Below are positions 1 through 60,327 of a DNA stretch of 60,327 nt, in pieces. Each line of letters begins with the position of its first letter. Position 1 is the first letter of the stretch. The position numbers and the translations under genes were made by a program. The stretch is from Fluviicoccus sp. (GTDB taxonomy: Bacteria; Pseudomonadota; Gammaproteobacteria; Pseudomonadales; Moraxellaceae): the NCBI GenBank assembly GCA_036279775.1, contig DASUIM010000508.1, positions 1-60,327 on the forward strand, read 5' to 3'. The notes below the pieces were generated by a model. The model did no database searches. It was not told the origin of the DNA and saw only the letters and a list, made by a program, of their open reading frames with translations.

Positions 1-141
1 CGGATTACGCTTTCCGTGTCGGTGCCGGCCAGCGCGGCCACGTCGTCCATCACCAGCTTACCATTCCGGTTCAGCGATACGAACAGAGCGTCTTGGGTAG
101 TCTTGATCTCCGGTTCGCGCGGAGCCTCGAGCACGCGGCCA
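1..141. repeat. Exact direct repeat of 60187-60327 (circular assembly overlap)
   Basis: cggattacgc...gcacgcggcca is identical at both ends, 141 nt, and lies inside a coding region. Confidence 0.97.
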
Positions 142-3100
142 TTGAGCACGGCGCCCTTGGCGATGGAGCCGTCCTCCTTGACGGTTTCCAGCGCGTAGGC
201 GAGCGCGCCCTCGGCGTCCATGCGCAGCAGCGGCTCATTCTTGTAGCGTTTGGTTTCGGTGACGGTGCCGTCCGGGGCGGTGCGCTCGATGGTGGTGTAA
301 TCCAGGATCGGGCCGTGCTCCTTCACGAAGGCATCGTAGACCTTGTTCAGCTCCTTCAGGCTCTTCTGCCAGTTGCCATCGTTGAGCTGGTCGTACTGCG
401 CCTGCTTCATGGCATCGCGCAGGCCCACGTAGCTGCGCAGCCACTTCTTCTGCTTCGGCGTCAGGGCGATCTGCTTGCCCTCGGTGTTGGTGCGGAACTC
501 CACCGGCACACCGCTGCCGTTCTCTACCTGCATCAGCTTGCCGTCGTCGGACAGGTAGAGGCCACCTTCCTTACGGCTCTTCGGGTTGAAGTCGCGCTCC
601 TGCACCATGGCGCGCTCGGCCTGCGAGCCGCGCTCAGGGCGGAAGACGTTCTCCGGCAGGCTCTGCACGGCCTTGGCGAACAGCTCGTCGATGTCGCCGT
701 CCGGCGGCAGCACGGTGTATTCGTTCGCCCGGTACATGCTGCCCTGCAGGGCGTGGCTGCCCAGCACCATCTCGGGATGGTCGGCGAAATACTCGTTGAT
801 GGCGGCCGGGCCTTGCGGGGTCGTAACCTCCTTGGTGCCGAGCCACTGCACGCCATTGTCGGCGATACCCGGGCCACGCTTCTGCAGGAAGATAACGTCG
901 GTCACTACCTCGGTGCCGGCGTTGTCCTTGAAAGCGGTCTGCGGCAGGCGGATCGCGCCCAGCAGGTTGGCGCGCTCGGCCAGGTACTTGCGGCTCTTGT
1001 CGCTGGCCTTGTCCATCGTGCCCTTGCTGGTCACGAACACCAGCACGCCGCCCGGCTTCACGCGGTCGATGGTCTTCATGAAGAAGTAATCATGCAGCAT
1101 CGGCCGGCGCGACTTGTATTCCGGGTCGGTCAGGATTTGCGTGGAGCTGAACGGCGGATTGCCGACAGCCGCGTCGAAGAAGTCCTTCGGCAGGTTGGTG
1201 CGGGTGTAGTCACCCACAATAATGTTGCTCTCCGGGTACAGCAGCTTGCCGATGGTCCCGGTGATGGTGTCGTACTCGATACCGGTATAGCGGCTGTTTG
1301 CTGCCATACCATCAGGCATCAAACCGTTGAAATGGCCGACGCCCATGCCCGGCTCGAGAATGGAGCCACCAGCCACGCCCAGGCGCTGCAGGCCGGTGTA
1401 GATGGAGCGGATCACGCCCTCGCTGGTGTAGTGGGCATACTGGGTGGTACGGCGGGCCTGCGCATATTCCTCTTCGGTCAGCGCGGCCTTCAGGCGTTCG
1501 CCCAGCTCGCGCCAAGAGGCGTCCTTGTACTGGCCGTACTGGTTCGGGAAGATGCCGTTGGCGATCTCGGAGGCGCCCCAGCCGGTGTATTTCACCAGCT
1601 GCGCGCGCTCTTCCGGGGTGGCCTGCCGGCCTTCTGCGGTGATCTTCTTGGCGAGTTCGACGATCTCGACGTTGCGCTGTGCGGTGGCCTTCCACGAACC
1701 TTCCCGCTTCAGCTCGCCCGGCTGGATGCGGTAGTTCCTTACGCCGCTGCTTGGCTCGTCACTTCCTCGACGGCCTGCTGCAGCGCCTGGTTCTCGGCTT
1801 CCTTGAACTGCAGGTTCAGCGTTTGCGTCCGCACCATCGGATCGGCCACGAACCCCGGCTTGCCCTGCGTCGTCGCCGCCTCGATTGCCTGCTGCCGGGC
1901 TTCCGCTATCGACTCCTCGGCTCGGCCGAGTATCGGGTTCAGCACCTCGTCCAGCCGGTTGCTGGCCTTCAGCTCGGCGTACAGCTCCGGCTGCCTGTCC
2001 TTCAGCGCCAGCACCAGCGCCTGCTTGAGTTCCTTGGGTGTCATTCTGGTTGTCCTCCTCCTTCATTTTAGCCTGTGCAGATTGCTCTGCAATATCTGCC
2101 ATCATGGCGTCATGCGCCTTTTTGGCAACCTGCTGCGAACTCATGCCATCAGTATCAAGCCCGGGATAGTTACGGGCGGCTTCATAGAAGGAGAGTAGAT
2201 AGGGGGTGATTGCCTCGCCGAAATCGGCGGTCATGGCCTTGGCGTAGTCAGAGAAGCGGCGAACACCAGATTCGATGTAGCCACCGGCAATGGTCATGCC
2301 GTCAATCAGCAGTTCCGGGTCTATACCAGCGTTCAGCTGGGTGCCGGACAGCTTCTGCTTCAGGCGCGCACGGGCGGCCTCCACCTTGTCGGCGGTGAAA
2401 ATCTTGTTGTTGGCGAACTGGCCATTCTTGCCGCCGGTCGGCGGGGTCGGCTCGGTCGGCTTGGCCTCTCCCTGCATCTTTGCGACCTGATCCATCTCGG
2501 ATTTTGTCAGCCCACCGATACGCTCTGCTACGGCAGTGATGTCGCCAGGACGTGCTTTCATGTCAGCGAAACGCTGGATAAGCCCAGCCCTGTCGATGTC
2601 GCCGTTCATGAAATCGACGACAGCGCGCTGGCCTTGCGTGATTACCTCTGGCTGGCCGTCAAACACATGAGGGTATTCGATGCGCTGCGGCTTTGCCTCT
2701 GCCTGCACCTCTTCCACGGTCGGCGGGGTCTGGTTGGCCGCAGCCCGCTCCTTCCGAGGAAGATCACGCGCCTGCTGCAGCATGGTGGCACGGTCGCTCG
2801 GCGATGCAGGCGCACGGCCGCGCACGGCGGCAGACAGCTTGGCATACATCGTGGCGTTCTGATCTGCGTCGGAAAGCGCCTGATACATGGCCTTGCGCCA
2901 TTCAGCCGGCGTCGATTCATCGGACTGCTGCGCGGTGGATTGCTCCTCCTCGCGCATCCGGTCCATGTGCCAGGACAGTTGCTTGGTGAGATCGTCCAGC
3001 GCCTCAATGTCGGCGCCGTCCTGCTGGCGCATGGCCTCGATGTCGGCCATGTCCTGCTCTGCCATGGCGAGCGTGTAGCCGGACTCGCCACGGGAGGCGC

Positions 3101-6100
3101 CGCGCTTCTTGCGCAGGCCCTGCGAGATGCGCTCGGTACGGGTCTGCACGTCGCCAGTGAATGCCGGCTTCTGTGCTGCAGGCTGCACCTGCTTGCCGTC
3201 CATGGCGGCGCGGATTTTCTTGGCGTAGATGGTGTTGCCGGTGTAGTCCCAGCCACCATTCACCACGCGCGACAGAATCTGCTCAGGCACGCCAGCAGCA
3301 GCGGCGAATGCCTCGCGCTGCACTTTGGTGGCCTGCATCCAGCGGTCTGCGTAGTCGTCCTGCTGCTCGGCTGCCGGTGCCAGATTTGGCACTTCCTCGG
3401 CAGCTTGAACTGTCGAGGATTCCTCGGCAGTTGCCTTCGGCTTGATCTCCCAGCGCGCCTTGCCGGTCTGCACGGCGTCATGGGTGGCGCCTGCCTTCTT
3501 CTTGGCGATGAAGGCTTCGGCCTTTTCCTTGCTGCCGAACCACTTGCCGGCGTGCTCGTTGGCTACTTCTTCGGCTTGGCTTTCTTGGCCTTGCTGCGTA
3601 GGGCCTGCGCTACCTTCTGCTGGCTTGCCGGCGGCAGGTTCTTGGCCTGCTGGATTGCTTTCTGCAGTCTGTTGCTGACGCTCATTAACGATTCCCTCGA
3701 GTGCTTGGAAGAATTGAGTTGCGGTGCCGCCATCAGTCATCACGGCGGCGCGTTCGATGAGTTCGGCGGCGACATCCTCGCCAAACTCGGCATTCATGGC
3801 GGCGGACAGCTCGGCGTAAGCCTTCGCCTCTGCGTCGTCCAGGTTGGCCGGCGCCTCATCGATGGCGGCCGTGAAGTCGGCGGTCACCAGCTTGTTGATC
3901 TGCGCCTCGATCTGGCGGCGCTGTTCCTTCAGCTCCGGCGTCATGCCGGTTTCCTTGGCCTGTGCGGCGACTTCCTTCAGCTGTGCGCGCAGCTCCGGCT
4001 CGGTCATGGCCTCGAGGTTGGCGGGCGCTGGCGCGGCCTGCGGTGCGGCGGCAGGCTGCTTGCCGTAAGTCCCAAGCCTGCGCTCGATGATACTGGCGTA
4101 GCGGCCAACGATCTCCGGGGACACACCAGCTACCTCGGCGAACTTCTCCGGCGTGGCGCGGAAATCTGCGGCGATCTGCGCTGCACGCTCGCTGTCATTG
4201 GCAGCGATGTTCTGCAGGTAGGTTTCAGCCGCCAGGATGCGATCCACTCGCGGGTCAACCGTAGCCGGGTGCTCGCGTCGTGCCATTTGACCGAGCGCGC
4301 CGGCAACATCTGTGGCGGTGCCTTGCTGCTGGCTCAGTGCAGGCTGGGTGTCGGCGGTTTGGTCTGCACCAGAAACACCAGCTCCAGCACCGAGTTCAGA
4401 TGCTCCGGCGTCACCTCGCACGACAGCAGGGCCTGCTTGATCTCCTGCGCCTGCTGCTGGCTGATTAGCCCCTGTTTGCGCAGCCGCTTGATCGCCTTGT
4501 TGGCCGACATTTCGAACTCCAAGATCACCATTGGCAGCTACTCCTGTGGTGGCGGTCTGATCCAGCTGGGGCGCCTTCGCGGCTACCTTTTCCAGCGCCT
4601 TGGCGAGCGGGCCGGTTTCCGGGGTGATCTGCACCGGGTCGTCGCTGGTGAAGGTGTAGACCTGCCCATCGTCACCCAGCACGCGGGTGACGGTGTTCCC
4701 CTGCTCGTCCTCGGTGTGGGACTGCACAAAGCCGGTGATCTCGCCTTCAGGGGCGGTCACGGTGACGCGCGCCGGCTGCTCGGCGGTGTTCTCCATCGCA
4801 CGGGTCAGCGGGCCGTCAGCCTGCGACGGTGCCGGCGGGGTAGTGGTCGCAACCGGTGCGGCTTCTGCCGGGGCAGCTTCTGCCGGGTTGGCCGCAGCGG
4901 CCGGGGCAGCTTCTGCTGCTGCCGGGGCGCCTGCCGGGGTAGTGGTGCTGGCCGGCGCGGCCGGAGTGGTCGGCGACGGCTGCGCGCTCGGCGTGGCGCC
5001 GGGCAGACCGCGCTTGGCGATGTCCATGGCGCTACCGATGGCCGGTTCAACAACAGACTGCCCGAAACCGTACACGCCTTCGCGCAGGGCATCGCCGGCA
5101 TCTACTTCGCCGCGTGCTACCTTCTGGCTCGCGGCCTCGCCCACGACTTCGCCGGTCGCATCCAGACCGACAGCAGCACCGCCAGCAGCGACACGCTTGC
5201 TGATGGTCGGGGCCACGCCGGTTTTCAGGGCCTGACGGGACGGCGCGGTAGCCACCTTGCCGCCGAGGCCCATGAACAGCTGATCCACCAGCGCGACGGT
5301 CAGGCCCTTCTTCAGACCGCGCTCGCGCGCTTCAGACTGGAAGGCTTTGTCGTCCAGCAGGGCCTTGATGTTGCCGGCGGTCGGCGCGGCCTTGTTGGCC
5401 TGCAGGCGCTCGAGGAGCATCTGCTCGACTTCTGCGCCCAGCTCGGTTGCGGTGGTGCCGGCTGCCATACCAGCACGGCCACCCCAGATCGCACCGCTCA
5501 CAGCACCCGGCGCGGCGCCGATACCACCGAACAGCGCACCAACACCAGCGCCAGCAGCAGCGCCAGTACCAGCACCAGCACCACCGCCGGCAATGGTCGG
5601 CAGCATGTTCGGTGCCTGCTCGACGATGCCGACAGCCAGGTCTTTCGGGTTGGTGATGGCGGTCCCGATAGCTTTCGCGCCGGCCTTCACGGTATCCCAT
5701 GCGCCTTGGGCGTTGGTCACGTCCTGGAAGGCGGCGTCGATCTCCTTCTCGCCGGTCGTCTTCGGGCGGTTGGCCTCGCGCTGGAACTTCGCGGCCAGCG
5801 CGTTCGCCAGCTCGCCACTGTCACCGCCGGCAACGGCAAAGCGGGCAGTGTTGAGCGACTGCACCATGTTGTCGTAGCCGGTGGAAACGGCATCGCCGGC
5901 ACGGTCGAAGAAGCCGCGATTGTCGATGGCCTTCTGCTGGTCGGCCGCACCAGCCTCCATGGGATCAGCGCCAGCCGGCTTGAAGTTGCGGTACTGCTCG
6001 GCGGTTTCGATCTCGGTGCGCTGGCGGTCGCGGCGGGCTACCTCTTCCGGGGAGTTCTCGAACGGGTACAGGGTTTCGCCGATGCGCGCGGCCTTGCCCA

Positions 6101-6641
6101 TCACCTCCTCGCCGTAGGCGGAAGTCTTCGCGCCCCACAGCTTGCGGTTAGGACCAGCGAAGTGCTCGCGCACGGCGTCGATCATCGAATAGCCCTTGTC
6201 CAGTCGCTCGCGCAGCTGGCGGGCGGCAGCCGGGATCGCCTGATTCGGGTCGAACGGGTTGATGCCCAGACCGCTGGCAGTGCTGTCCAGGTACTGCATC
6301 ATGCCCTTGGCGCGGCCCCACTCGGTCGGCAGGCCGATGGCTTTCGGGTTGAAGCCGCTCTCCTGGTGGCCGAGGGCCATCAGCACGTTGACCGGCACGT
6401 TGAACTCACGCGCGGCGGCCTCGAACAGTGGGCGGAATTCTGCGGGCGGGGTGTAGTCGCCGGACTTGCGGCCTTTGCTGGGGGCGCGGGTGTCTGCTTG
6501 TGCCGGCGCCTGCGCCGGAGGGGTGGCCGGTTGCGCCGCCGGCTCCTCGGTGGGTAGCGGCGGCAGCGCAAACCGTTCTTGCTGGATACGCTCAGTGACA
6601 GCTTCTAGCGGGGATTCGAGAAACGTGTTTTTGCTCGCCAC
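1..6641 (-). CDS. darB: 5' part of giant polyvalent DarB-like virion protein (SLT transglycosylase, Gly/Ala hydrophobic segment, linkers, N6-adenine methyltransferase); continues across the origin to 52926, total 4,633 aa
   Basis: Absent from the ORF track. Manual translation from GTG 6641 (MASKNTFLESP, RBS AAAAGGG) found no stop and joins 52926..60320 in frame (6641+7261=13,902 nt). SLT motifs LGHQESGFNP/GMMQY at ~6080-6440; MTase motifs LEPGMGVG (~1340-1360) and GNPPF (1149-1160). Confidence 0.93.
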   Translation of the reverse strand, partial: MASKNTFLESPLEAVTERIQQERFALPPLPTEEPAAQPATPPAQAPAQADTRAPSKGRKSGDYTPPAEFRPLFEAAAREFNVPVNVLMALGHQESGFNPKAIGLPTEWGRAKGMMQYLDSTASGLGINPFDPNQAIPAAARQLRERLDKGYSMIDAVREHFAGPNRKLWGAKTSAYGEEVMGKAARIGETLYPFENSPEEVARRDRQRTEIETAEQYRNFKPAGADPMEAGAADQQKAIDNRGFFDRAGDAVSTGYDNMVQSLNTARFAVAGGDSGELANALAAKFQREANRPKTTGEKEIDAAFQDVTNAQGAWDTVKAGAKAIGTAITNPKDLAVGIVEQAPNMLPTIAGGGAGAGTGAAAGAGVGALFGGIGAAPGAVSGAIWGGRAGMAAGTTATELGAEVEQMLLERLQANKAAPTAGNIKALLDDKAFQSEARERGLKKGLTVALVDQLFMGLGGKVATAPSRQALKTGVAPTISKRVAAGGAAVGLDATGEVVGEAASQKVARGEVDAGDALREGVYGFGQSVVEPAIGSAMDIAKRGLPGATPSAQPSPTTPAAPASTTTPAGAPAAAEAAPAAAANPAEAAPAEAAPVATTTPPAPSQADGPLTRAMENTAEQPARVTVTAPEGEITGFVQSHTEDEQGNTVTRVLGDDGQVYTFTSDDPVQITPETGPLAKALEKVAAKAPQLDQTATTGVAANGDLGVRNVGQQGDQAAAQTGANQPAAGAGDQAGPAVVRGDAGASELGAGAGVSGADQTADTQPALSQQQGTATDVAGALGQMARREHPATVDPRVDRILAAETYLQNIAANDSERAAQIAADFRATPEKFAEVAGVSPEIVGRYASIIERRLGTYGKQPAAAPQAAPAPANLEAMTEPELRAQLKEVAAQAKETGMTPELKEQRRQIEAQINKLVTADFTAAIDEAPANLDDAEAKAYAELSAAMNAEFGEDVAAELIERAAVMTDGGTATQFFQALEGIVNERQQQTAESNPAGQEPAAGKPAEGSAGPTQQGQESQAEEVANEHAGKWFGSKEKAEAFIAKKKAGATHDAVQTGKARWEIKPKATAEESSTVQAAEEVPNLAPAAEQQDDYADRWMQATKVQREAFAAAAGVPEQILSRVVNGGWDYTGNTIYAKKIRAAMDGKQVQPAAQKPAFTGDVQTRTERISQGLRKKRGASRGESGYTLAMAEQDMADIEAMRQQDGADIEALDDLTKQLSWHMDRMREEEQSTAQQSDESTPAEWRKAMYQALSDADQNATMYAKLSAAVRGRAPASPSDRATMLQQARDLPRKERAAANQTPPTVEEVQAEAKPQRIEYPHVFDGQPEVITQGQRAVVDFMNGDIDRAGLIQRFADMKARPGDITAVAERIGGLTKSEMDQVAKMQGEAKPTEPTPPTGGKNGQFANNKIFTADKVEAARARLKQKLSGTQLNAGIDPELLIDGMTIAGGYIESGVRRFSDYAKAMTADFGEAITPYLLSFYEAARNYPGLDTDGMSSQQVAKKAHDAMMADIAEQSAQAKMKEEDNQNDTQGTQAGAGAGAEGQAAGAVRRAEGQQPAGRGAEPDTRPSRGVDSGSPAAGNRGGDDAGQAGVRGRSDGADANAEPAVQGSREPGAAAGRRGSDEPSSGVRNYRIQPGELKREGSWKATAQRNVEIVELAKKITAEGRQATPEERAQLVKYTGWGASEIANGIFPNQYGQYKDASWRELGERLKAALTEEEYAQARRTTQYAHYTSEGVIRSIYTGLQRLGVAGGSILEPGMGVGHFNGLMPDGMAANSRYTGIEYDTITGTIGKLLYPESNIIVGDYTRTNLPKDFFDAAVGNPPFSSTQILTDPEYKSRRPMLHDYFFMKTIDRVKPGGVLVFVTSKGTMDKASDKSRKYLAERANLLGAIRLPQTAFKDNAGTEVVTDVIFLQKRGPGIADNGVQWLGTKEVTTPQGPAAINEYFADHPEMVLGSHALQGSMYRANEYTVLPPDGDIDELFAKAVQSLPENVFRPERGSQAERAMVQERDFNPKSRKEGGLYLSDDGKLMQVENGSGVPVEFRTNTEGKQIALTPKQKKWLRSYVGLRDAMKQAQYDQLNDGNWQKSLKELNKVYDAFVKEHGPILDYTTIERTAPDGTVTETKRYKNEPLLRMDAEGALAYALETVKEDGSIAKGAVLNGRVLEAPREPEIKTTQDALFVSLNRNGKLVMDDVAALAGTDTESVI
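1739..2044 (-). CDS. Nested +1-frame gene inside darB; TnpV-like helical protein (101 aa)
   Basis: SD AAGGAGGAGG 9 nt before ATG. 34 of the first 36 codons after ATG end in G/C. Motif LKxxxPxLYxxLxxSxxL...ADPM...N...AE resembles TnpV as I recall it. Confidence 0.78.
   Translation of the reverse strand: MTPKELKQALVLALKDRQPELYAELKASNRLDEVLNPILGRAEESIAEARQQAIEAATTQGKPGFVADPMVRTQTLNLQFKEAENQALQQAVEEVTSQAAA
3563..3685 (-). CDS. Nested +1-frame basic peptide inside darB (40 aa, MSVSNRLQKAIQQAKNLPPASQQKVAQALRSKAKKAKPKK)
   Basis: GAGGGA 7 nt before ATG 3685; TAG at 3563-3565; same alternative frame as the other nested ORFs. Confidence 0.55.
   Translation of the reverse strand: MSVSNRLQKAIQQAKNLPPASQQKVAQALRSKAKKAKPKK
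4334..4531 (-). CDS. Nested +1-frame gene inside darB (58-65 aa; alternative start ATG 4510)
   Basis: GGAG precedes both ATG 4531 and ATG 4510. Codons are G/C-ending and the product looks like an amphipathic helix, while the darB frame here is a low-complexity linker. Confidence 0.65.
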   Translation of the reverse strand: MVILEFEMSANKAIKRLRKQGLISQQQAQEIKQALLSCEVTPEHLNSVLELVFLVQTKPPTPSLH

Positions 6642-6668: not shown

Positions 6669-6707
6669 TGGTCAGATATTAGCACCACCGGTATCCGTTT
6701 CAAACCA
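6669..6707 (-). promoter_or_regulatory. Tandem 19-bp TGGT-N11-ACCA boxes over putative darB promoter
   Basis: TGGTCAGATATTAGCACCA 6669-6687 and CGGTATCCGTTTCAAACCA 6689-6707; minus strand reads TTGAAA-N16-TAATAT with TG extension. Confidence 0.6.
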
Positions 6708-52811: not shown

Positions 52812-52955
52812 ATGAGAGACATTGAACTCGCCAAGCACTTCCCCGAAAACATCTCCGACGCCAAGCGCAACAGGATGGCAAGGCTAGGCGCCCTGTACAT
52901 CCTGTTTGCCATGTTTGGCGTGCCGCTATTCGTCGTCCTCCTCGCCCGCCTGTAG
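52812..52955 (+). CDS. 47-aa peptide with C-terminal TM helix
   Basis: RBS GAGGT; MRDIELAKHFPENISDAKRNRMARLGALYILFAMFGVPLFVVLLARL; overlaps the darB 3' end by 30 nt. Confidence 0.6.
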   Translation: MRDIELAKHFPENISDAKRNRMARLGALYILFAMFGVPLFVVLLARL

Positions 52956-55900
52956 CCCGAACACCCCGCGCAGCTCCTCGGCCGCCTGCCGGCCTTGCTT
53001 ACGCTCGCGGCCCCATGTGCCTTTCACGCCATCGCGCTCGCGCATCATCTTGTTGCGCAGCGCCCGTGTGCCGATCTTGATGACTTCCTCCGGTGCTGCA
53101 GTGTCGTTGTGCTCGTTGATGTCGGCGTAGATGTCGTCGATCTCCTGCTCGATCTCCGGCGCCTCCTCCGGGCTGGCAGTTTCCAGCCGCACCATGGCTT
53201 TCGCCAGCTTGTTGGTGTAGCTGCGCTTCAGGCCATCCACGGCGGTTTCCTGCCGGCGTTGGGCATACTCGTAGTCGCGCACGTCGGTGACGATAGACGG
53301 CTGGAAGCCAATCGCCTTCATCGCAAGGTCACCGTTGCCAAGCTCGTCCGGAGCCAGGATCAGGTTACCCTGCTTGTCGCGCACGCCCTCGAGCGCCCAG
53401 CTCCCCGACACCAGCCAGTGCTTGATGAAGTTCGGGGACAGCTCGCCCAGCGCGCCCAGCTCGTCGCCGGCAGACATCTTCTCGAAGGCCCGCTTCGGGC
53501 GGCCGATCAGCATGTCGAACGGGATGCCGGCGGCAGCAAGCGGCGAATCCGGCACGATGGAGCCCATGCCCACCCGGGTCAGGTCCACACCGAGCGGGTA
53601 GCTCGCGCCCTTGGTCACCATCTGGGACAGCGCATTGCTGCCGGAGGTTCGGGCGATCCACGCGCGCAGCTCGGTCTTCAGGTCCATGTCTTTGCCGGTG
53701 ATCGTCTTGTATATGCTCTCCAGCAGCTCGCGCAGGTCGTCGGCGCCAGGCAGTCCCCACAGTCCGGATAGGGAATACAGCGCCAGCAGGGAGGCCGCAG
53801 CAGCGTACTTGCCTTCTTTGCCGTGCAGGGCGGCCATGCGATACCACGCTTCCATGGTCTGCAGCATGAAGCCCTTGAACTGCATGATCGTCGAGCCAAC
53901 ACCGCGCATCACGCTCGGACGGTTGGCCTTGCCCATGCGGTACTGCGACTCGTCCACCGCCCATTCCGCGAAGCTCTTCGGGTTCCAGTTGCGCAGCACT
54001 TCGGCACGGGCCAGCGCATCGCCGGCCAGCACCCGATTGGCGTTCTCCTGGACGGCGCGCTTCTGAGCCACGCGCGCTGCCGCGATGAAGGTAACAAGCC
54101 GGTTCATACGCTCGGCGAAGGTGAAGCCCAGCGCGATGATCTGCGTTGCCTTGTTGAAGGCTTTCACCCCCTTACGGGCGCCGACGTTGCGCTGCCGCGC
54201 GGTCATCATCAGGTCGAAGGACTCGAGCGGCACGAAGGAACCTTCCGCCCAAGCCTCTTTCAGGATGTCGCGCACGTCGGCCGGTGCCTTGTTCGGGTCG
54301 AACATCTCGAGGGTGGGCGAGATCATGCGGGCGGCGTCCTTGTAGGCGCGGCCAATCTCCTTGGTCAGCAGCGGCATCGGTGCAACCTGGCCCAGCGTCG
54401 GCAGGGTCATCAGTGGAACCTGCGTCAGGTTGGCGAAAGCCGAGGCCAGCACACCCGCGATGTAGCTGAAGAAGCCGATTTGCTTGACCATCGCCAGCTC
54501 TTCCTGCGGGTCGTTCACGTAGTTGCGGTACTTGCTGGCGTACTCGAACAGCTTCGGCTTCTCGTTGATCCCGCTGACGGCGTTTTCCCACCGCTTCATG
54601 TGCTGGCGACGGGACAGGTAGCCGGACATCCCGATCACGTAGTCGGCGATGGACCGCTCGAAGTCGCCGGTATAGCCAGGCACGTTGTCGGAGTGGAAGA
54701 AGTGCCGGCGGAAGCCCTTCGCCTTGATGGCGTCGGCCAGCTTGTCGCGGACAGCATCCCATGTGCCGTTGTCGATGTTCGCCACCTCGGCCAGCGCGTC
54801 CACGTCGGACAGCTTCACGGGCTGGTCTGTCTTCTTCTCGCGGGTCTTGAAGGCCACGATCCGGCGGTTCGGGTGGCCCTCCACCCATTCCGCGCGGGCC
54901 TTGTCGATGGCCTCCTTCACGGCCTTGATGTCGTCCACCTTGCCGGCGCGGCGCTCGTCCAGGATGTCACCCAGCCCGGTTTCCACCTTGGTCGAATAGA
55001 TGGTCTTCTCGGTCAGCCGCTCAACGTCCTGTTTCTGGGACTTCTTGATGCGCCAGCCCTCGGCGTTGCGCTCTGCGCCCATCTCCACCAGCTCGGGGGC
55101 GAAGGAATCCGGCAGGCCCTTGGCGATGTAGTGATCCTTGTCGTCCTCCACGAAGGACACGTCGGCAACCTTCTCCTTCACGGTCACCACGTAGTCACCG
55201 TAGCGGGCGAACGGCACGTAGCCGGCGCGCTTGGCCTGCTCGATCTCGGACACGAAGGCGGCAATGTTCTTGATGCGCTCGGCCTTCTCCGGCGGGGTCT
55301 TATCGTCGATGGTAGCGATGATCTTCTTGGCGGCATTCCCCTCCCCGGCGAACTCGCCGAAGCCCATCTCCTCGAGGGTCACGTCGCGCATCTTGTCCAG
55401 CGCGCGGTCGAACATCCGGCGCAGGTCCTGGTACGCCTTGATCTCCTGCTCGTTCAGCTTCACCACCTCGCCCACTTCGGTCAGCAGGGCATGGATCGGC
55501 TCCTTGGCGAGGAACGGCTTGCCGGCCACCATCACAACAGTGGTCTTCTCGCCAGTGTTGCCGATGCCGTCAGCCAGTACACGCGGCGTGTAAACGCTCG
55601 AGGTCAGGCGGCCCAGCTCCAGCGCCTTGTTGACCTTCTCCTTACCCTGCTGGTCGAGGTGGTCATATGCCTTCACGTCGGCGCCGAAGTCGGCGATGAA
55701 CTTGTCGCGGGTTTCCATCTGGCTGATGGCCGTCCGGTAAACCGGGGTGAACTCCTTGTGCACGGCGGCCACGGTACGCGGATGCACCAGCAGGCGGGCG
55801 CCAAGCGACATGTCGCCCAGCACGCGGCCGATGTAGTCGTCCTTCACCTTCGGCGCGTCGAGCGCGGCGGCGGCGGCGTCCAGCTCCTTGCTGTCCTCGG

Positions 55901-58900
55901 CCACGCTGAACTTGCCGGTAACACCGGACAGTTGGCCGCGCTCGGCCATCACGGCGGCGTTCATGATGACCAGCTTCGCCATGCCGGCCAGTTGGGCCGG
56001 GGTCACGTCACCCAGCTGCTTGCCGTAGCGTGCCAGCACGTAAGCCTTGATGTGGCCGATGAGGTCTTCCACCCACTTCCGGATCACCGCCGGCAGGCTG
56101 TCGCGGTTCTGCTCCCACTCCTCCACGGCGTAGGCGCCGAACTCTTCCACGGTCATGCCGGTGCTGACGGCGCCCTGCTGGCGGGCTGCGGCCACGCGGT
56201 CACGGGCGCGGTCGAAGAACTCGCGCGCCTTGCCGCTGGAAAGCTCGGCCTGCCGGTACAGGGAGCCGAGGCGGCCCATCAGGTTGCCCCATTCCTTCGA
56301 ACCAACCAGGGCCTCACCGCCCATGTGGAACATTTCGTGCAGCAGCACCGGGCGGGCGTTGTCGCGGGTCAGCCGGTTGGCAACCAGGTGAATCTGCCCG
56401 TTGGCGAGGGTAACGGCCTGCACGCCCTTCTTGCCACGGGCGGCCTTCGGCATGGTTTCGGCGTTCTGGTGCAGCACGATCTGGCCGTTGTCGATCATGC
56501 GGGCCACCACCGGGCCGATAACTCCCGTGGTGATCTCGCTGCGCAGGTCGTCAACATTCAGCTTGCCGGACCGCTGGCGCACCACCTCGGAACGGTTGGC
56601 CGGCTCCGGCTGGGTGGATTGCTTGGCATCGCCGTACTTCTCGTAAGCCGACACCAGCCATGCCTTCGCCTGGCCGTTCCAGTCGAGGCGGATAGTGGCC
56701 TCGTCGGACTCGTTGCCGAGGAACACGCGGCCGATCTGGTTGGACTTCTCGTAAACGTCGGTTTCCTGCAGGATCGCGGCGATGCGGGGCAGGAAGTCCT
56801 CGCCACGGCGGGCGGCGATGTGGGACAGGCCCATCTTGCCATCGCCCCAGATCAGGCTGATCTCGCCCAGCTTCGGGTGGTCGATGATGGCCTCGCCGGT
56901 ACGCTGCTGCTGCAGGTACTGGATGGCGCCGGCCGGGTCGTTGCGGAAGTCTTCGGTCACCGGGCCGAACTCGCCCACCGCCTGCCCTTCGGCATTGACG
57001 GAGTAGCGCGGCTCGGCATCAGCGGCAGCGTCTGCCTGCTCGGTGGTTCCCTCTACCGCCACCGTGGCAGCGGCGGCATCGGCGTTGTTCTCCTTGCTCT
57101 CGGCAGCCAGCTCGGCCTCGAGGCTGTTCAGCTCGGCCACCTTCTCCAGCAGCAATGCCTCTTCAGGGAACGGCGCCCCCAGTCGCTTGCTGGCCTGCTC
57201 TACCTTCGCCTTGGCGCTGTCGATGTAGCCCTGTGCGTCAGCACGCTGCTTGTCCAAGCCGTTGACCTGGTTGGCCGCACGGGTGGCGATGCCGGAAACG
57301 GCGGTATCCGGGTCGAGCGGGAACGTCAGCAGCGGGTCAGGATCGTCCGGCAGGTCCACATGCAGGGAGGCAGCATAGGTGCCGCCCTTCATCTCGAGGC
57401 CATAGAACTTGATCGGGAAGCCGCCGATCTCGCCAACCTCGCGCTCGTCCTGCAGGCCGGTGCCGGCGATGTCCTGGAACTCCTTGAACAGGGCTTGGCT
57501 GAATTCCTCGCGGCTGTCGTAGGTGGTCTTGCCAACCTTGCCCTCGAACTCACCGGCCTTGATCGGCTGGCGCTTGGCAATGGCCTTGTCCAGCTCCTGC
57601 ACGCGGGCGGTGTTGCGCTTGATCTGCTCTTCTGCCCAGTGCTTCTCGCGCATCAGGCGGTTCTGGTCGTCGTAGTGGGCATGGCGCAGGCGCTCGAGGC
57701 GATCCACGTCAGCCTTGAGGCCGGCCAGCTTCATGTAACGCTCGTCGCCGGAAGCCAGCGCGGCGGCCATCTCGAAGGCCGATGCCTCGGACACGTCCTC
57801 CATGGAGCGAACGCTGTCGTCGCCGTTCATGGCCTGCTCGATGAAGCGGGCCTTGCGGGCGTTCATGCCCCACATGGTCGAGTCGTAGCTGCCCTTGGTG
57901 GCGTATGCCTTCAGCACAACCTCGCGGTTCTGGTTGCCCTGACGCACGGCGCGGCCCTCGCGCTGCTCCACGGAGGCCGGGAACCATGGCGCGTCCAGGT
58001 GGAACAGGTGGGAGAGGCGCTTCTGCACGTTGGTGCCGGTTTCCATCTCCTTGCCGCCGATCAGGATGCGCTTCTTGCCCTCGCGCATGTCGGAGAACAT
58101 CCGCTCCTTCTTGGCGTGCTGCTTGTAGTCGCGCATGAAAGCGATGTGCTCGCGCGGGATGCCGGCATCGGTCAAGCGCTTCTCGATCCAGCCTCGCATG
58201 TCGAAGCCACGGGAGGCGGCCGACTGCTCGCCGAGGCCGATGTCGGTAAACACCATCAGGGTGGAACCCTTCAGCGGCTCCACCTTGCCGTCCTTGGCAG
58301 CGTATTCCCAAGTCGCAGTCTCCTTGTAGGCCGCGATCAGGTCGTCGATCATCTGGTTGAGCTTGCTGTCCGGGTCGCTCGGCAGGGTCGGGTCTACGAA
58401 ACGCATGTCGATTGCCGAGAAGCGGCCGTCGCCAATCACGTTCAGGATGATGTCCTCGCCCTTCTTCGGCGGTCCCTTGCGGCGCTTGATCGCCTCAATG
58501 CGCTTCTGCAGGCCCTGCTGGAACTCCTTGTAGCCGGCCGGCGACGGGGTGACTTCCACCTTGCGGCCACCGCCAACCACGTCCGGGCGCTTCACCAGCT
58601 CGCCAAGGTTGGAGCTGGTCAGGATGTCCATAAAGGAACGGACACGGCGCATCAGCTCCGGCACGTTCTGGAACTTGGCGAAGCGGGCCACCATCTCGTA
58701 GCCGCCGGCAGCGTTCTGTTCAAAGCCGGTCACGATGTCGCCGTACTGGTTCGCCCAGGCGTCGAAGCTCTCGAGGCCGTCTTCCTTCATCTGCTCCGGC
58801 TGGAAGAAGCGTTGCGCGGTGTACAGCTCGCCCATGGTGTTGGTCACCGGGGTGCCAGAGGCAGCAACCAGCGCGCGGCCGGGCTTCTTGCCGCGCAGGT

Positions 58901-60327
58901 ACTCCACCTTCATGAACAGGTCGAGCGCGCGCTGCGAGCCGTTCGGGTCTACGCCCTTCACGTTGCCCTGGTTGGTGGCGAAGTCCAGCTTCCGGAACTC
59001 GTGGAACTCGTCCACATACAGCTTATCGACGCCCAGCTCTTCGAAGGTCAGTACCTGATCCTTCTTGTCGCGGTTCTGGCGGCCTTCCATGCGCTGCTCG
59101 AGCTGCTCGATGCGGCGCTCGATCTGCTTCACGGTCACGCGGTCGCTGCTGTCGGCATCCTCGAGCGCAGCCTTCCAGTCGTCGATTTGGCGCTGCATGA
59201 AGTCGGTGTAGAACTCATCGCTCATGCCGATGCGGCCAAAAGCCGAGTGCGTGATGATGATGGCGTCCGGGTTGTTCAGCGCGGCCTGTGCCACAAACCG
59301 CTTGCGGTTGTGGGTGTGGAAGTTCTGCTCGTCGGCAACCATGATGTTGGCCGCCGGGTACAGCTCCAGGAACTCGCGGGAGAACTGGGCAAGCATGTGG
59401 TTCGGCACAACGTACATCGGCTTGTTCACCAGGCCGAGGCGGCGCTCCTCCATGCCGGCGCCGATCATCTCCATGGTCTTGCCGGCGCCTACCGCGTGGG
59501 CGAGGTAGCTGTCGCCCTGCTGGATCACGCGCCATATCGCGCGCTTCTGGTGCGGCCGGAGCTGGATCAGGGCCGACACGCCCGGCAGGGTCAGGTGCGA
59601 GCCATCGAACTTGCGGGGCGCGATGTTGTTGAAGTTCTCGTTGTAGTAGGACACCAGACGCTCGGCGCGCTTGGGGTCGGTCCATAGCCAGGTGCTGAAA
59701 CGCTCGCGCATCTTCTTGGCGATGTCGTTCGCCTTCTCGGTTGCCTCGAGGTCAACGTGGGTCTTGTTCTCCTGGTCGCGGAAGGTGATTTTCAGCTGAC
59801 GATTGTTGAGCACGCCCTCGAGGACCTGGCCGGCGCTCATCTTGTCGAAGCCCCACTCGGTGAGGCTGCGGCTCTTCTGGTCCACATCCCACTTGTTCAG
59901 TAGCGGGCTGTAGGTCACGTCCATGCGCTCGCCCAGCACTTCGCTGGCGAACTTCTCGATGTCGGAGGCCGGAACCCAGTTGGCGCCAAGACGCACGGTG
60001 ATGTCGGTCGGGCCGAGCGGGCGCGGCTGCACGGACAGTAGGGCCTCGACGTTACGCTTGTAGCGCTGGTCCAGCTCGGCGGCGGCGCGGGCTTCCTTCA
60101 GCTTGCGCACCACGTTGCCGGACAGGTACTCATCGGCCAGCTGCCAGCCGGCGCCCGGAGCGTCGTAAATGGCAGTGCCAAGATCGCGGATTACGCTTTC
60201 CGTGTCGGTGCCGGCCAGCGCGGCCACGTCGTCCATCACCAGCTTACCATTCCGGTTCAGCGATACGAACAGAGCGTCTTGGGTAGTCTTGATCTCCGGT
60301 TCGCGCGGAGCCTCGAGCACGCGGCCA
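52926..60327 (-). CDS. darB: 3' part of giant DarB-like protein (SWI2/SNF2 helicase, PBECR-like nuclease, HExxH peptidase, PLxRFG-like domain)
   Basis: AVGAGKT (~59475-59495), DEFH (59001-59012), SGTP, QREGR; ISLIWG..GLSHI...WLVSAY (~56630-56960); HEMFH 56325-56339; YVPFARYG (~55200). Confidence 0.93.
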   Translation of the reverse strand, partial: GRVLEAPREPEIKTTQDALFVSLNRNGKLVMDDVAALAGTDTESVIRDLGTAIYDAPGAGWQLADEYLSGNVVRKLKEARAAAELDQRYKRNVEALLSVQPRPLGPTDITVRLGANWVPASDIEKFASEVLGERMDVTYSPLLNKWDVDQKSRSLTEWGFDKMSAGQVLEGVLNNRQLKITFRDQENKTHVDLEATEKANDIAKKMRERFSTWLWTDPKRAERLVSYYNENFNNIAPRKFDGSHLTLPGVSALIQLRPHQKRAIWRVIQQGDSYLAHAVGAGKTMEMIGAGMEERRLGLVNKPMYVVPNHMLAQFSREFLELYPAANIMVADEQNFHTHNRKRFVAQAALNNPDAIIITHSAFGRIGMSDEFYTDFMQRQIDDWKAALEDADSSDRVTVKQIERRIEQLEQRMEGRQNRDKKDQVLTFEELGVDKLYVDEFHEFRKLDFATNQGNVKGVDPNGSQRALDLFMKVEYLRGKKPGRALVAASGTPVTNTMGELYTAQRFFQPEQMKEDGLESFDAWANQYGDIVTGFEQNAAGGYEMVARFAKFQNVPELMRRVRSFMDILTSSNLGELVKRPDVVGGGRKVEVTPSPAGYKEFQQGLQKRIEAIKRRKGPPKKGEDIILNVIGDGRFSAIDMRFVDPTLPSDPDSKLNQMIDDLIAAYKETATWEYAAKDGKVEPLKGSTLMVFTDIGLGEQSAASRGFDMRGWIEKRLTDAGIPREHIAFMRDYKQHAKKERMFSDMREGKKRILIGGKEMETGTNVQKRLSHLFHLDAPWFPASVEQREGRAVRQGNQNREVVLKAYATKGSYDSTMWGMNARKARFIEQAMNGDDSVRSMEDVSEASAFEMAAALASGDERYMKLAGLKADVDRLERLRHAHYDDQNRLMREKHWAEEQIKRNTARVQELDKAIAKRQPIKAGEFEGKVGKTTYDSREEFSQALFKEFQDIAGTGLQDEREVGEIGGFPIKFYGLEMKGGTYAASLHVDLPDDPDPLLTFPLDPDTAVSGIATRAANQVNGLDKQRADAQGYIDSAKAKVEQASKRLGAPFPEEALLLEKVAELNSLEAELAAESKENNADAAAATVAVEGTTEQADAAADAEPRYSVNAEGQAVGEFGPVTEDFRNDPAGAIQYLQQQRTGEAIIDHPKLGEISLIWGDGKMGLSHIAARRGEDFLPRIAAILQETDVYEKSNQIGRVFLGNESDEATIRLDWNGQAKAWLVSAYEKYGDAKQSTQPEPANRSEVVRQRSGKLNVDDLRSEITTGVIGPVVARMIDNGQIVLHQNAETMPKAARGKKGVQAVTLANGQIHLVANRLTRDNARPVLLHEMFHMGGEALVGSKEWGNLMGRLGSLYRQAELSSGKAREFFDRARDRVAAARQQGAVSTGMTVEEFGAYAVEEWEQNRDSLPAVIRKWVEDLIGHIKAYVLARYGKQLGDVTPAQLAGMAKLVIMNAAVMAERGQLSGVTGKFSVAEDSKELDAAAAALDAPKVKDDYIGRVLGDMSLGARLLVHPRTVAAVHKEFTPVYRTAISQMETRDKFIADFGADVKAYDHLDQQGKEKVNKALELGRLTSSVYTPRVLADGIGNTGEKTTVVMVAGKPFLAKEPIHALLTEVGEVVKLNEQEIKAYQDLRRMFDRALDKMRDVTLEEMGFGEFAGEGNAAKKIIATIDDKTPPEKAERIKNIAAFVSEIEQAKRAGYVPFARYGDYVVTVKEKVADVSFVEDDKDHYIAKGLPDSFAPELVEMGAERNAEGWRIKKSQKQDVERLTEKTIYSTKVETGLGDILDERRAGKVDDIKAVKEAIDKARAEWVEGHPNRRIVAFKTREKKTDQPVKLSDVDALAEVANIDNGTWDAVRDKLADAIKAKGFRRHFFHSDNVPGYTGDFERSIADYVIGMSGYLSRRQHMKRWENAVSGINEKPKLFEYASKYRNYVNDPQEELAMVKQIGFFSYIAGVLASAFANLTQVPLMTLPTLGQVAPMPLLTKEIGRAYKDAARMISPTLEMFDPNKAPADVRDILKEAWAEGSFVPLESFDLMMTARQRNVGARKGVKAFNKATQIIALGFTFAERMNRLVTFIAAARVAQKRAVQENANRVLAGDALARAEVLRNWNPKSFAEWAVDESQYRMGKANRPSVMRGVGSTIMQFKGFMLQTMEAWYRMAALHGKEGKYAAAASLLALYSLSGLWGLPGADDLRELLESIYKTITGKDMDLKTELRAWIARTSGSNALSQMVTKGASYPLGVDLTRVGMGSIVPDSPLAAAGIPFDMLIGRPKRAFEKMSAGDELGALGELSPNFIKHWLVSGSWALEGVRDKQGNLILAPDELGNGDLAMKAIGFQPSIVTDVRDYEYAQRRQETAVDGLKRSYTNKLAKAMVRLETASPEEAPEIEQEIDDIYADINEHNDTAAPEEVIKIGTRALRNKMMRERDGVKGTWGRERKQGRQAAEELRGVFGLQAGEEDDE

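Follow-up and report, generated by a model that had tools for sequence, protein, structure and literature searches.

In this study, a 60,327-nt stretch of Fluviicoccus sp. DNA (contig DASUIM010000508.1, hereafter the window) was found to contain a 101-codon reading frame nested in the +1 frame of a giant DarB-like gene. Judged by its conservation and by the selection acting on it, the nested ORF is almost certainly a real gene, and its product is, at the level of sequence profiles, a distant family-level relative of TnpV. The TnpV protein family is already known; nesting of a TnpV-like gene in a giant was not found in print, no description of it having turned up in the parts of the literature searched. 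The nested gene is probably the older frame, through which the giant now reads. Its product may be a separately expressed, dedicated brake or chaperone that binds the methylase-SNF2 helicase module, a reading to which we assign a probability of about 0.45. The main features are as follows.

3..6641, minus strand: DarB-like giant, 5' part, 2,213 codons (SLT transglycosylase, linkers, N6-methyltransferase), running on across the 141-bp terminal repeat
52926..60186, minus strand: DarB-like giant, 3' part (SNF2/Helicase_C and a weak PBECR1 match), from Pfam matches
537..1736, minus strand: methyltransferase region, directly after the nested stop and co-inherited with the nested gene, from Pfam and homologue comparison
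1739..2044, minus strand: TnpV-related nested gene in the +1 frame of the DarB-like gene, encoding an acidic 101-aa protein (pI 4.8) with four predicted helices, from ORF, conservation and selection
2054..2063, minus strand: Shine-Dalgarno (SD) sequence AAGGAGGAGG, 9 nt ahead of the nested ATG, from sequence

The host phage and the nested frame

The window is a complete circular Bcep22-like temperate phage. A 141-bp terminal repeat is present at its ends, and the two giant minus-strand ORFs located there join into a single DarB-like gene of 4,633 codons. Genes for the portal, major head protein, terminase, integrase, holin and endolysin were found, and the methylase is 73-76% identical to those of Bcep22-like Burkholderia and Ralstonia phages. 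The giant has the make-up of the Bcep22-like DarB type, a single ORF of ~4,500 aa that closes the virion module and combines SLT, N6-methylase and SNF2 helicase; in phage JC1, the DarB-like gp69 is virion-associated (PMC9144972, in part). The combination of SLT, N6-methylase and SNF2 in one virion-type giant is shared with P1 DarB and the methylase-SWI2/SNF2 dyad of polyvalent proteins (Iyer et al. 2017, PMC5512222, in part), in the searched parts of which neither "TnpV" nor "overlap" occurs. Unlike the window giant, P1 DarB starts ~90 codons before the matched region and carries no nested gene, no nested homologue being found within the locus searched. A sigma70-like site lies immediately upstream of the giant gene (window 6676..6703, minus strand), and a predicted sigma70 promoter also lies directly upstream of P1 darB. 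A contig from run X1 shows no difference from the window over 1500-4800 and may be the window's own source.

The nested ORF runs on the minus strand from an ATG at 2044 to a TAA that ends at 1739. Recomputation confirmed what the earlier note had described, namely a 101-aa +1-frame ORF with an SD and with 34 of the first 36 codons past the ATG ending in G or C, and supplied the strand. Across the nested ORF, GC3 is 0.87 in the nested frame vs 0.39 in the DarB frame over identical bases; among 24 shifted ATG-ORFs of at least 40 codons in the 11 other long coding stretches of the window, one shows a flip of this kind. As had also been stated, the DarB frame stays open across the nested ORF, where it encodes a G/A/R/E linker (aa 1533-1633). 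The nested stop was said to fall at the start of the methyltransferase domain. This holds in so far as the stop overlaps the V-R codons just 5' of NYRIQ, where homology to stand-alone methylase-helicases starts, but the Pfam N6_Mtase match begins later, at aa 1809 of the giant.

Homologues of the nested protein are numerous. A protein search returned 10 with 59-97% identity (9 of them exactly 101 aa), and a profile search returned 25. Sixteen of 17 close phage loci carry an SD-led +1 ORF of 95-112 aa that ends at the methylase start, the 17th being cut by a contig edge. A wider set of 183 loci, some of them duplicates, was picked solely by methylase and searched in six frames (22,556 segments); it holds 125 distinct nested proteins. 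The first profile matched 74 segments, all 74 in the +1 frame. The iterated profile gave 145 matches in 143 of the 183 loci, 143 of them in +1 and two in frame 0, with no match in +2 or antisense; one frame-0 match is a second downstream copy, and the other lies nested within the 5' half of a giant that carries a frameshift. The nested homologues begin with ATG at 137 of 140 starts, and an SD-like motif is present at 127 of the 140, compared with 754 of 7,705 +1 ATGs in the control (the choice of start favoured SD). The expected conservation of ORF and SD among homologues was thus borne out, essentially always in the +1 frame.

A full-length nested homologue is present in 95 of 97 viral loci, and one of the two lacking it is cut by a contig edge (L010/L109). 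Its stop lies at most 35 codons from the methylase start in 85 of the 95, and the upstream domain is variable; a fixed domain upstream of the nested gene in phages was considered and rejected on account of this variation. Three loci whose giants are nearly devoid of an N-terminus (L076, L077 and L102) still retain the nested gene. No nested homologue was found with alphaproteobacterial plasmid methylase-helicases within the loci searched. The gene had been called invisible to normal annotation, which is true of phages: an annotation for it is missing from all 40 phage records with a match to the nested protein, and none of the window's three nested ORFs has a PHROG family. It is not true of Firmicutes, where NCBI sources give the name "TnpV protein" to all four nested copies that were looked up.

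Some further features of these loci were observed. Bacteroides phage BKO1-TP3 has an acidic 87-codon +1 ORF (L207:4678-4941) that ends 20 codons before the methylase match; its profile similarity was not significant, and it was excluded from the count of family members. The methylase match is ~200 nt longer than the window's in L015, L139, L142, L144, L149, L151-L153, L156, L160, L167, L173 and L175, which suggests an inserted domain. A QL[SD]LF-like motif, which we take to be a sliding-clamp-binding motif, was seen in the giant frame near the nested gene in L076, L077, L102 and in 26 of 125 loci, counted without a control.

The two frames differ in their pattern of substitution. In four close groups, the same bases gave a pN/pS of 0.23-0.48 when read in the nested frame and 1.1-1.6 when read in the giant frame, so the per-frame comparison proposed in the earlier note points to purifying selection in the nested frame and not in the DarB frame. 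In two wider, partly saturated groups, the values were 0.72-0.82 for the nested frame and 1.15 for the giant. In contigs of close relatives, variable sites fall at the giant third codon position in 1 of 13 cases within the nested region vs 8 of 10 just downstream (p 7e-4); 7 of the 13 are silent in the nested frame, and 12 alter the giant. A third-position T that would create a stop in the giant frame occurs at 0 of 2,636 positions vs 893 of 6,139 elsewhere; this statistic is partly built into the definition of nesting, yet 142 of 143 loci passed without filtering. By chance, the giant frame would be expected to be open in ~15 of 125 loci, and none of the 14 free-standing tnpV loci keeps the equivalent frame intact. 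On this sequence evidence, both frames are kept open by selection, as in same-strand embedded gene pairs. Rz1 inside Rz is comparable: it, too, is an entire gene that has its own SD and lies out of frame within a second gene. The Rz and Rz1 frames both code for functional domains, whereas the host frame of the nested gene is an unconstrained linker and its host gene is 14 kb long. An embedded gene of the Rz/Rz1 type is also found in the lysis module of Bcep22-like phages (PMC9144972, in part).

Relationship to TnpV and DUF1896

The likeness to TnpV (PF14198) proposed in the earlier note was upheld for the family but not for the single protein. Taken alone, the window protein scores 14 bits (E 0.049), below the gathering cut-off of 27 bits. 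Alignment of the window clade with Firmicutes TnpV by hhalign gave P 93.3% and E 2.7e-7 over residues 11-94, with a profile score of 43.9 vs a decoy maximum of 20.6. TnpV was matched by 38 of 79 phage-type members and the next family by three. When 41 of the 140 nested proteins were tested against Pfam TnpV, the cut-off was passed by 20 of 21 Firmicutes-type and 1 of 20 phage-type proteins; 7 of these 20 phage-type proteins reach E<1e-3. The AlphaFold model of the nested protein has four helices (pLDDT 89.6) in the same order as in the TnpV model, which adds an N-terminal beta-hairpin (a comparison of helix order). Foldseek against PDB and BFVD gave no match at E<=0.001, wide VIA-align fold searches gave nothing at Z>=8, and a profile search of PDB sequences gave no significant match.

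As regards TnpV of the Tn4451/Tn4453 type (tnpV), the Firmicutes protein is, like the window gene, encoded in the +1 frame of a giant of equivalent type. In Firmicutes, ~130-1,340 codons separate the nested copy from the methylase downstream, and the constant domain that precedes the copy is a different one. Unlike TnpV of the Tn4451-type mobilisable transposon, the window gene lies directly before the methylase within a gene of the phage structural module, and its product is without the N-terminal beta-hairpin and under the 27-bit cut-off. In three Firmicutes genomes (20 of 35 matches fetched), 14 of 19 distinct TnpV loci are free-standing, so TnpV needs no giant gene in cis.

DUF1896 is treated as a lead because its profile similarity is weak. 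Against the wide alignment, it gave P 35%, E 4e-4 and a score of 25.6 vs a decoy maximum of 16.6; against the window's own clade, P was 2.5%, and DUF1896 is not among the 25 most-matched Pfam families for phage-type members. Like the nested gene, it is a small gene immediately before a methylase-helicase, whose start it adjoins with an 11-nt overlap in 4 of 7 Bacteroidota plasmid records. In one of the seven it lies two genes from the methylase-helicase, and in two it is absent within 2.5 kb. Unlike the nested gene, DUF1896 is free-standing, ~145 aa long and overlaps by just those 11 nt, and the sequence similarity is weak. The DUF1896 homologue 2apl (PG0816; PF08989) ranked 4th and 3rd in the wide fold searches with the nested-protein and TnpV models, at rmsd 2.0 and 2.2; the match at rmsd 2.0 covers 64 residues with Z 6.8, a value in the noise range for helical proteins. 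DUF1896 has been reported in 98 proteins around AcrIIA9 homologues (PMC6739104, in part).

Internal promoter candidates and the origin of the nesting

The nested gene is likely transcribed from an internal sigma70-type promoter of its own, as predicted from sequence, and translated from its own ribosome-binding site. Two candidate sites precede it.

2065..2092, minus strand: sigma70-like promoter candidate, TTGCAG, 16 nt, TAAAAT, with position and spacer start as in Bcep22-like sites, predicted from sequence
2101..2128, minus strand: second sigma70-like candidate, TTGCCA, 16 nt, CATGAT, one of 2 sites in 5.3 kb (shuffle mean 0.4)

Of 85 phage-type loci, 38 have a sigma70-like hexamer pair ahead of the nested start, whereas shuffles gave 8.5 +/- 2.7 (maximum 16) and the reverse strand 9; among 44 cluster representatives the count is 20, with 4.9 +/- 1.9 in shuffles. 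The enrichment was not significant in Firmicutes (14 of 41 vs 8.0 +/- 2.4, maximum 16) or before other nested ORFs (6 of 48). A promoter matrix gave a similar picture. Contigs from four runs in four studies agree with the window between 1600 and 2045-2048 and then continue as different DNA upstream of the nested ATG; four runs labelled RNA are probably DNA and were covered as contigs alone. The swapped upstream DNA comes in two distinct versions, each with its own SD and one also with a -10-like hexamer.

The nested ORF had been described as overprinted, a word that implies a young frame arisen de novo. This view is not supported and probably has the order of events backwards, as it is the nested frame whose GC3 resembles that of the genome, which is under purifying selection, and which has homologues in several phyla as well as free-standing forms. 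We infer engulfment by read-through because the nested frame has codon bias, selection and free-standing relatives, and because the Bacteroidota layout looks unfused. An upstream gene would read through a small gene into the methylase-helicase, so that the small gene would be engulfed and its -1 frame would be turned into a floppy linker. A further 55 SD-led +1 ORF candidates with a GC3 flip were found at 47 loci, and these are consistent with engulfment as a general process. Two additional nested ORFs lie in the window.

4334..4531, minus strand: second nested +1 ORF, 65 aa, SD AGGAG, GC3 0.89 vs 0.31, with nested homologues in 4 related loci
3563..3685, minus strand: third nested +1 ORF candidate, 40 aa, basic, SD GAGG, GC3 0.82 vs 0.40, unproven

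The nested homologues of the 65-aa ORF (4531..4334; E 6e-11) end in LH-stop in L003, L005, L108 and L113, and an ORF family at a comparable place in six Bcep22-like loci has pN/pS of 0.47 vs 1.37. The 40-aa ORF has no homologue at E<1e-3 among the 55 candidates.

Other nested frames were noted in related giants. Nested +1 ORFs lie directly after the giant's zeta-toxin domains (Pfam) at L150:4486-4704, L151:4453-4707 and L115:4234-4404 and are candidate hidden antitoxins. Ten small basic nested ORFs, ~640-900 codons before the methylase, form one family (L139, L142, L145, L146, L149, L151, L153, L167, L173 and L175); nine of them follow one shared upstream helical domain, and a ddrB-ParB domain is present in all four such giants scanned. 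Two nested +1 ORFs of 164-184 aa, at L113:3400-3954 and L132:3577-4071, presumably resemble HNH homing endonucleases, going by motif; neither has a Pfam match at E<=1e-3, and the giant frame is open across both. A broader scheme, which we put forward as doubtful, is that TnpV and DUF1896 form one unrecognised regulator family of the delivered methylase-SNF2 enzyme. Polyvalent giants would, in the same scheme, grow by reading through neighbour genes, which would survive separately promoted in linkers, several per giant, each as the partner or antidote of the adjacent domain, the ORFs after zeta-toxin domains being one example.

Possible roles of the nested protein

The role of brake or chaperone is proposed because of genetic linkage; the many free-standing TnpV loci, the distance from the methylase in Firmicutes and the lack of a nested homologue at the P1 and alphaproteobacterial plasmid loci searched speak against a strictly cis-acting partner. 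Expressed separately from the late 14-kb message, the nested protein could keep the enzyme inactive or soluble in the producing cell or lysogen; alternatively, it could switch off the injected enzyme after entry. A complex prediction that paired the nested protein with the methylase region's first 400 aa scored 0.00 and has no bearing either way. The nested protein might instead act early and independently, in anti-defence or host modulation, on a host target and not on DarB, and simply accompany the anti-restriction gene. We consider this rather unlikely. A promoter-like site of its own, a small acidic product (family median pI 5.2), the free-standing state of 14 of 19 TnpV loci and the report of DUF1896 around AcrIIA9 homologues would all suit such a protein, but its position is fixed at the methylase boundary across very distant phages, the module switch falls exactly at the nested start, and the nested protein is without a PHROG family. 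An adaptor role in packaging or ejection, in which the nested protein would load the virion with the giant much as P1 Ulx may do, is improbable. The virion association of JC1 gp69 (PMC9144972, in part) and the listing of P1 Ulx as aiding DarB localisation (PMC9024508, in part) agree with such a role, which nevertheless fits less well because of the promoter-like site, as a late message needs no host-type promoter inside, and because no likeness to Ulx was found (P 0.4%, 8 columns). The nested family also occurs in conjugative elements, which are capsid-less.

Ribosomal frameshifting into the +1 frame, giving a truncated giant with a TnpV-like end, or re-initiation of a shorter methylase-helicase would be a very unlikely explanation. 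In GenBank, the giant of phage PBC5 (L023, AF448724.1) is split near 3090-3140 into orf33 and orf23, and orf33 joins the N-terminal half and the TnpV-like sequence, which ends it, in a single frame. The split is probably a one-base sequencing error, or else a natural frameshift; a sequencing indel is the likelier cause because this is one of 183 loci and its own SD and ATG are kept. Against frameshifting stands also the ATG at 137 of 140 starts, and against re-initiation the presence of a DarB-frame start codon near the nested stop in just 2 of 81 loci; on the latter count (control 0.48), we rejected coupled translation of a shorter methylase-helicase. Also very unlikely is a role in excision or regulation through DNA binding, as was once postulated for Tn4451 TnpV. 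Homology with lambda Xis had led to the proposal that TnpV takes part in excision (PMC3158075, in part), and the window phage is temperate with an integrase; the models, however, are acidic bundles of helices, for which none of the fold searches gave an Xis-like match. On the map, 46 kb separate the nested gene from the integrase, and the gene is tied to the methylase. That the ORF is unexpressed, a by-product of linker composition or a relic, is scarcely credible in view of its purifying selection, kept length and SD, predicted folding and family-wide homology.

With the nested protein read as a brake or chaperone of the methylase-SNF2 helicase module, TnpV, a common protein of unknown function, gains a testable client. 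The nested gene adds an unannotated conserved gene to the well-studied cultured phages Bcep22, BcepIL02, DC1, BcepMigl and PEp14, and low-complexity DarB linkers may be explained as the shifted reading of real genes. Engulfment by read-through is proposed as a concrete route by which giant multi-domain proteins may originate.
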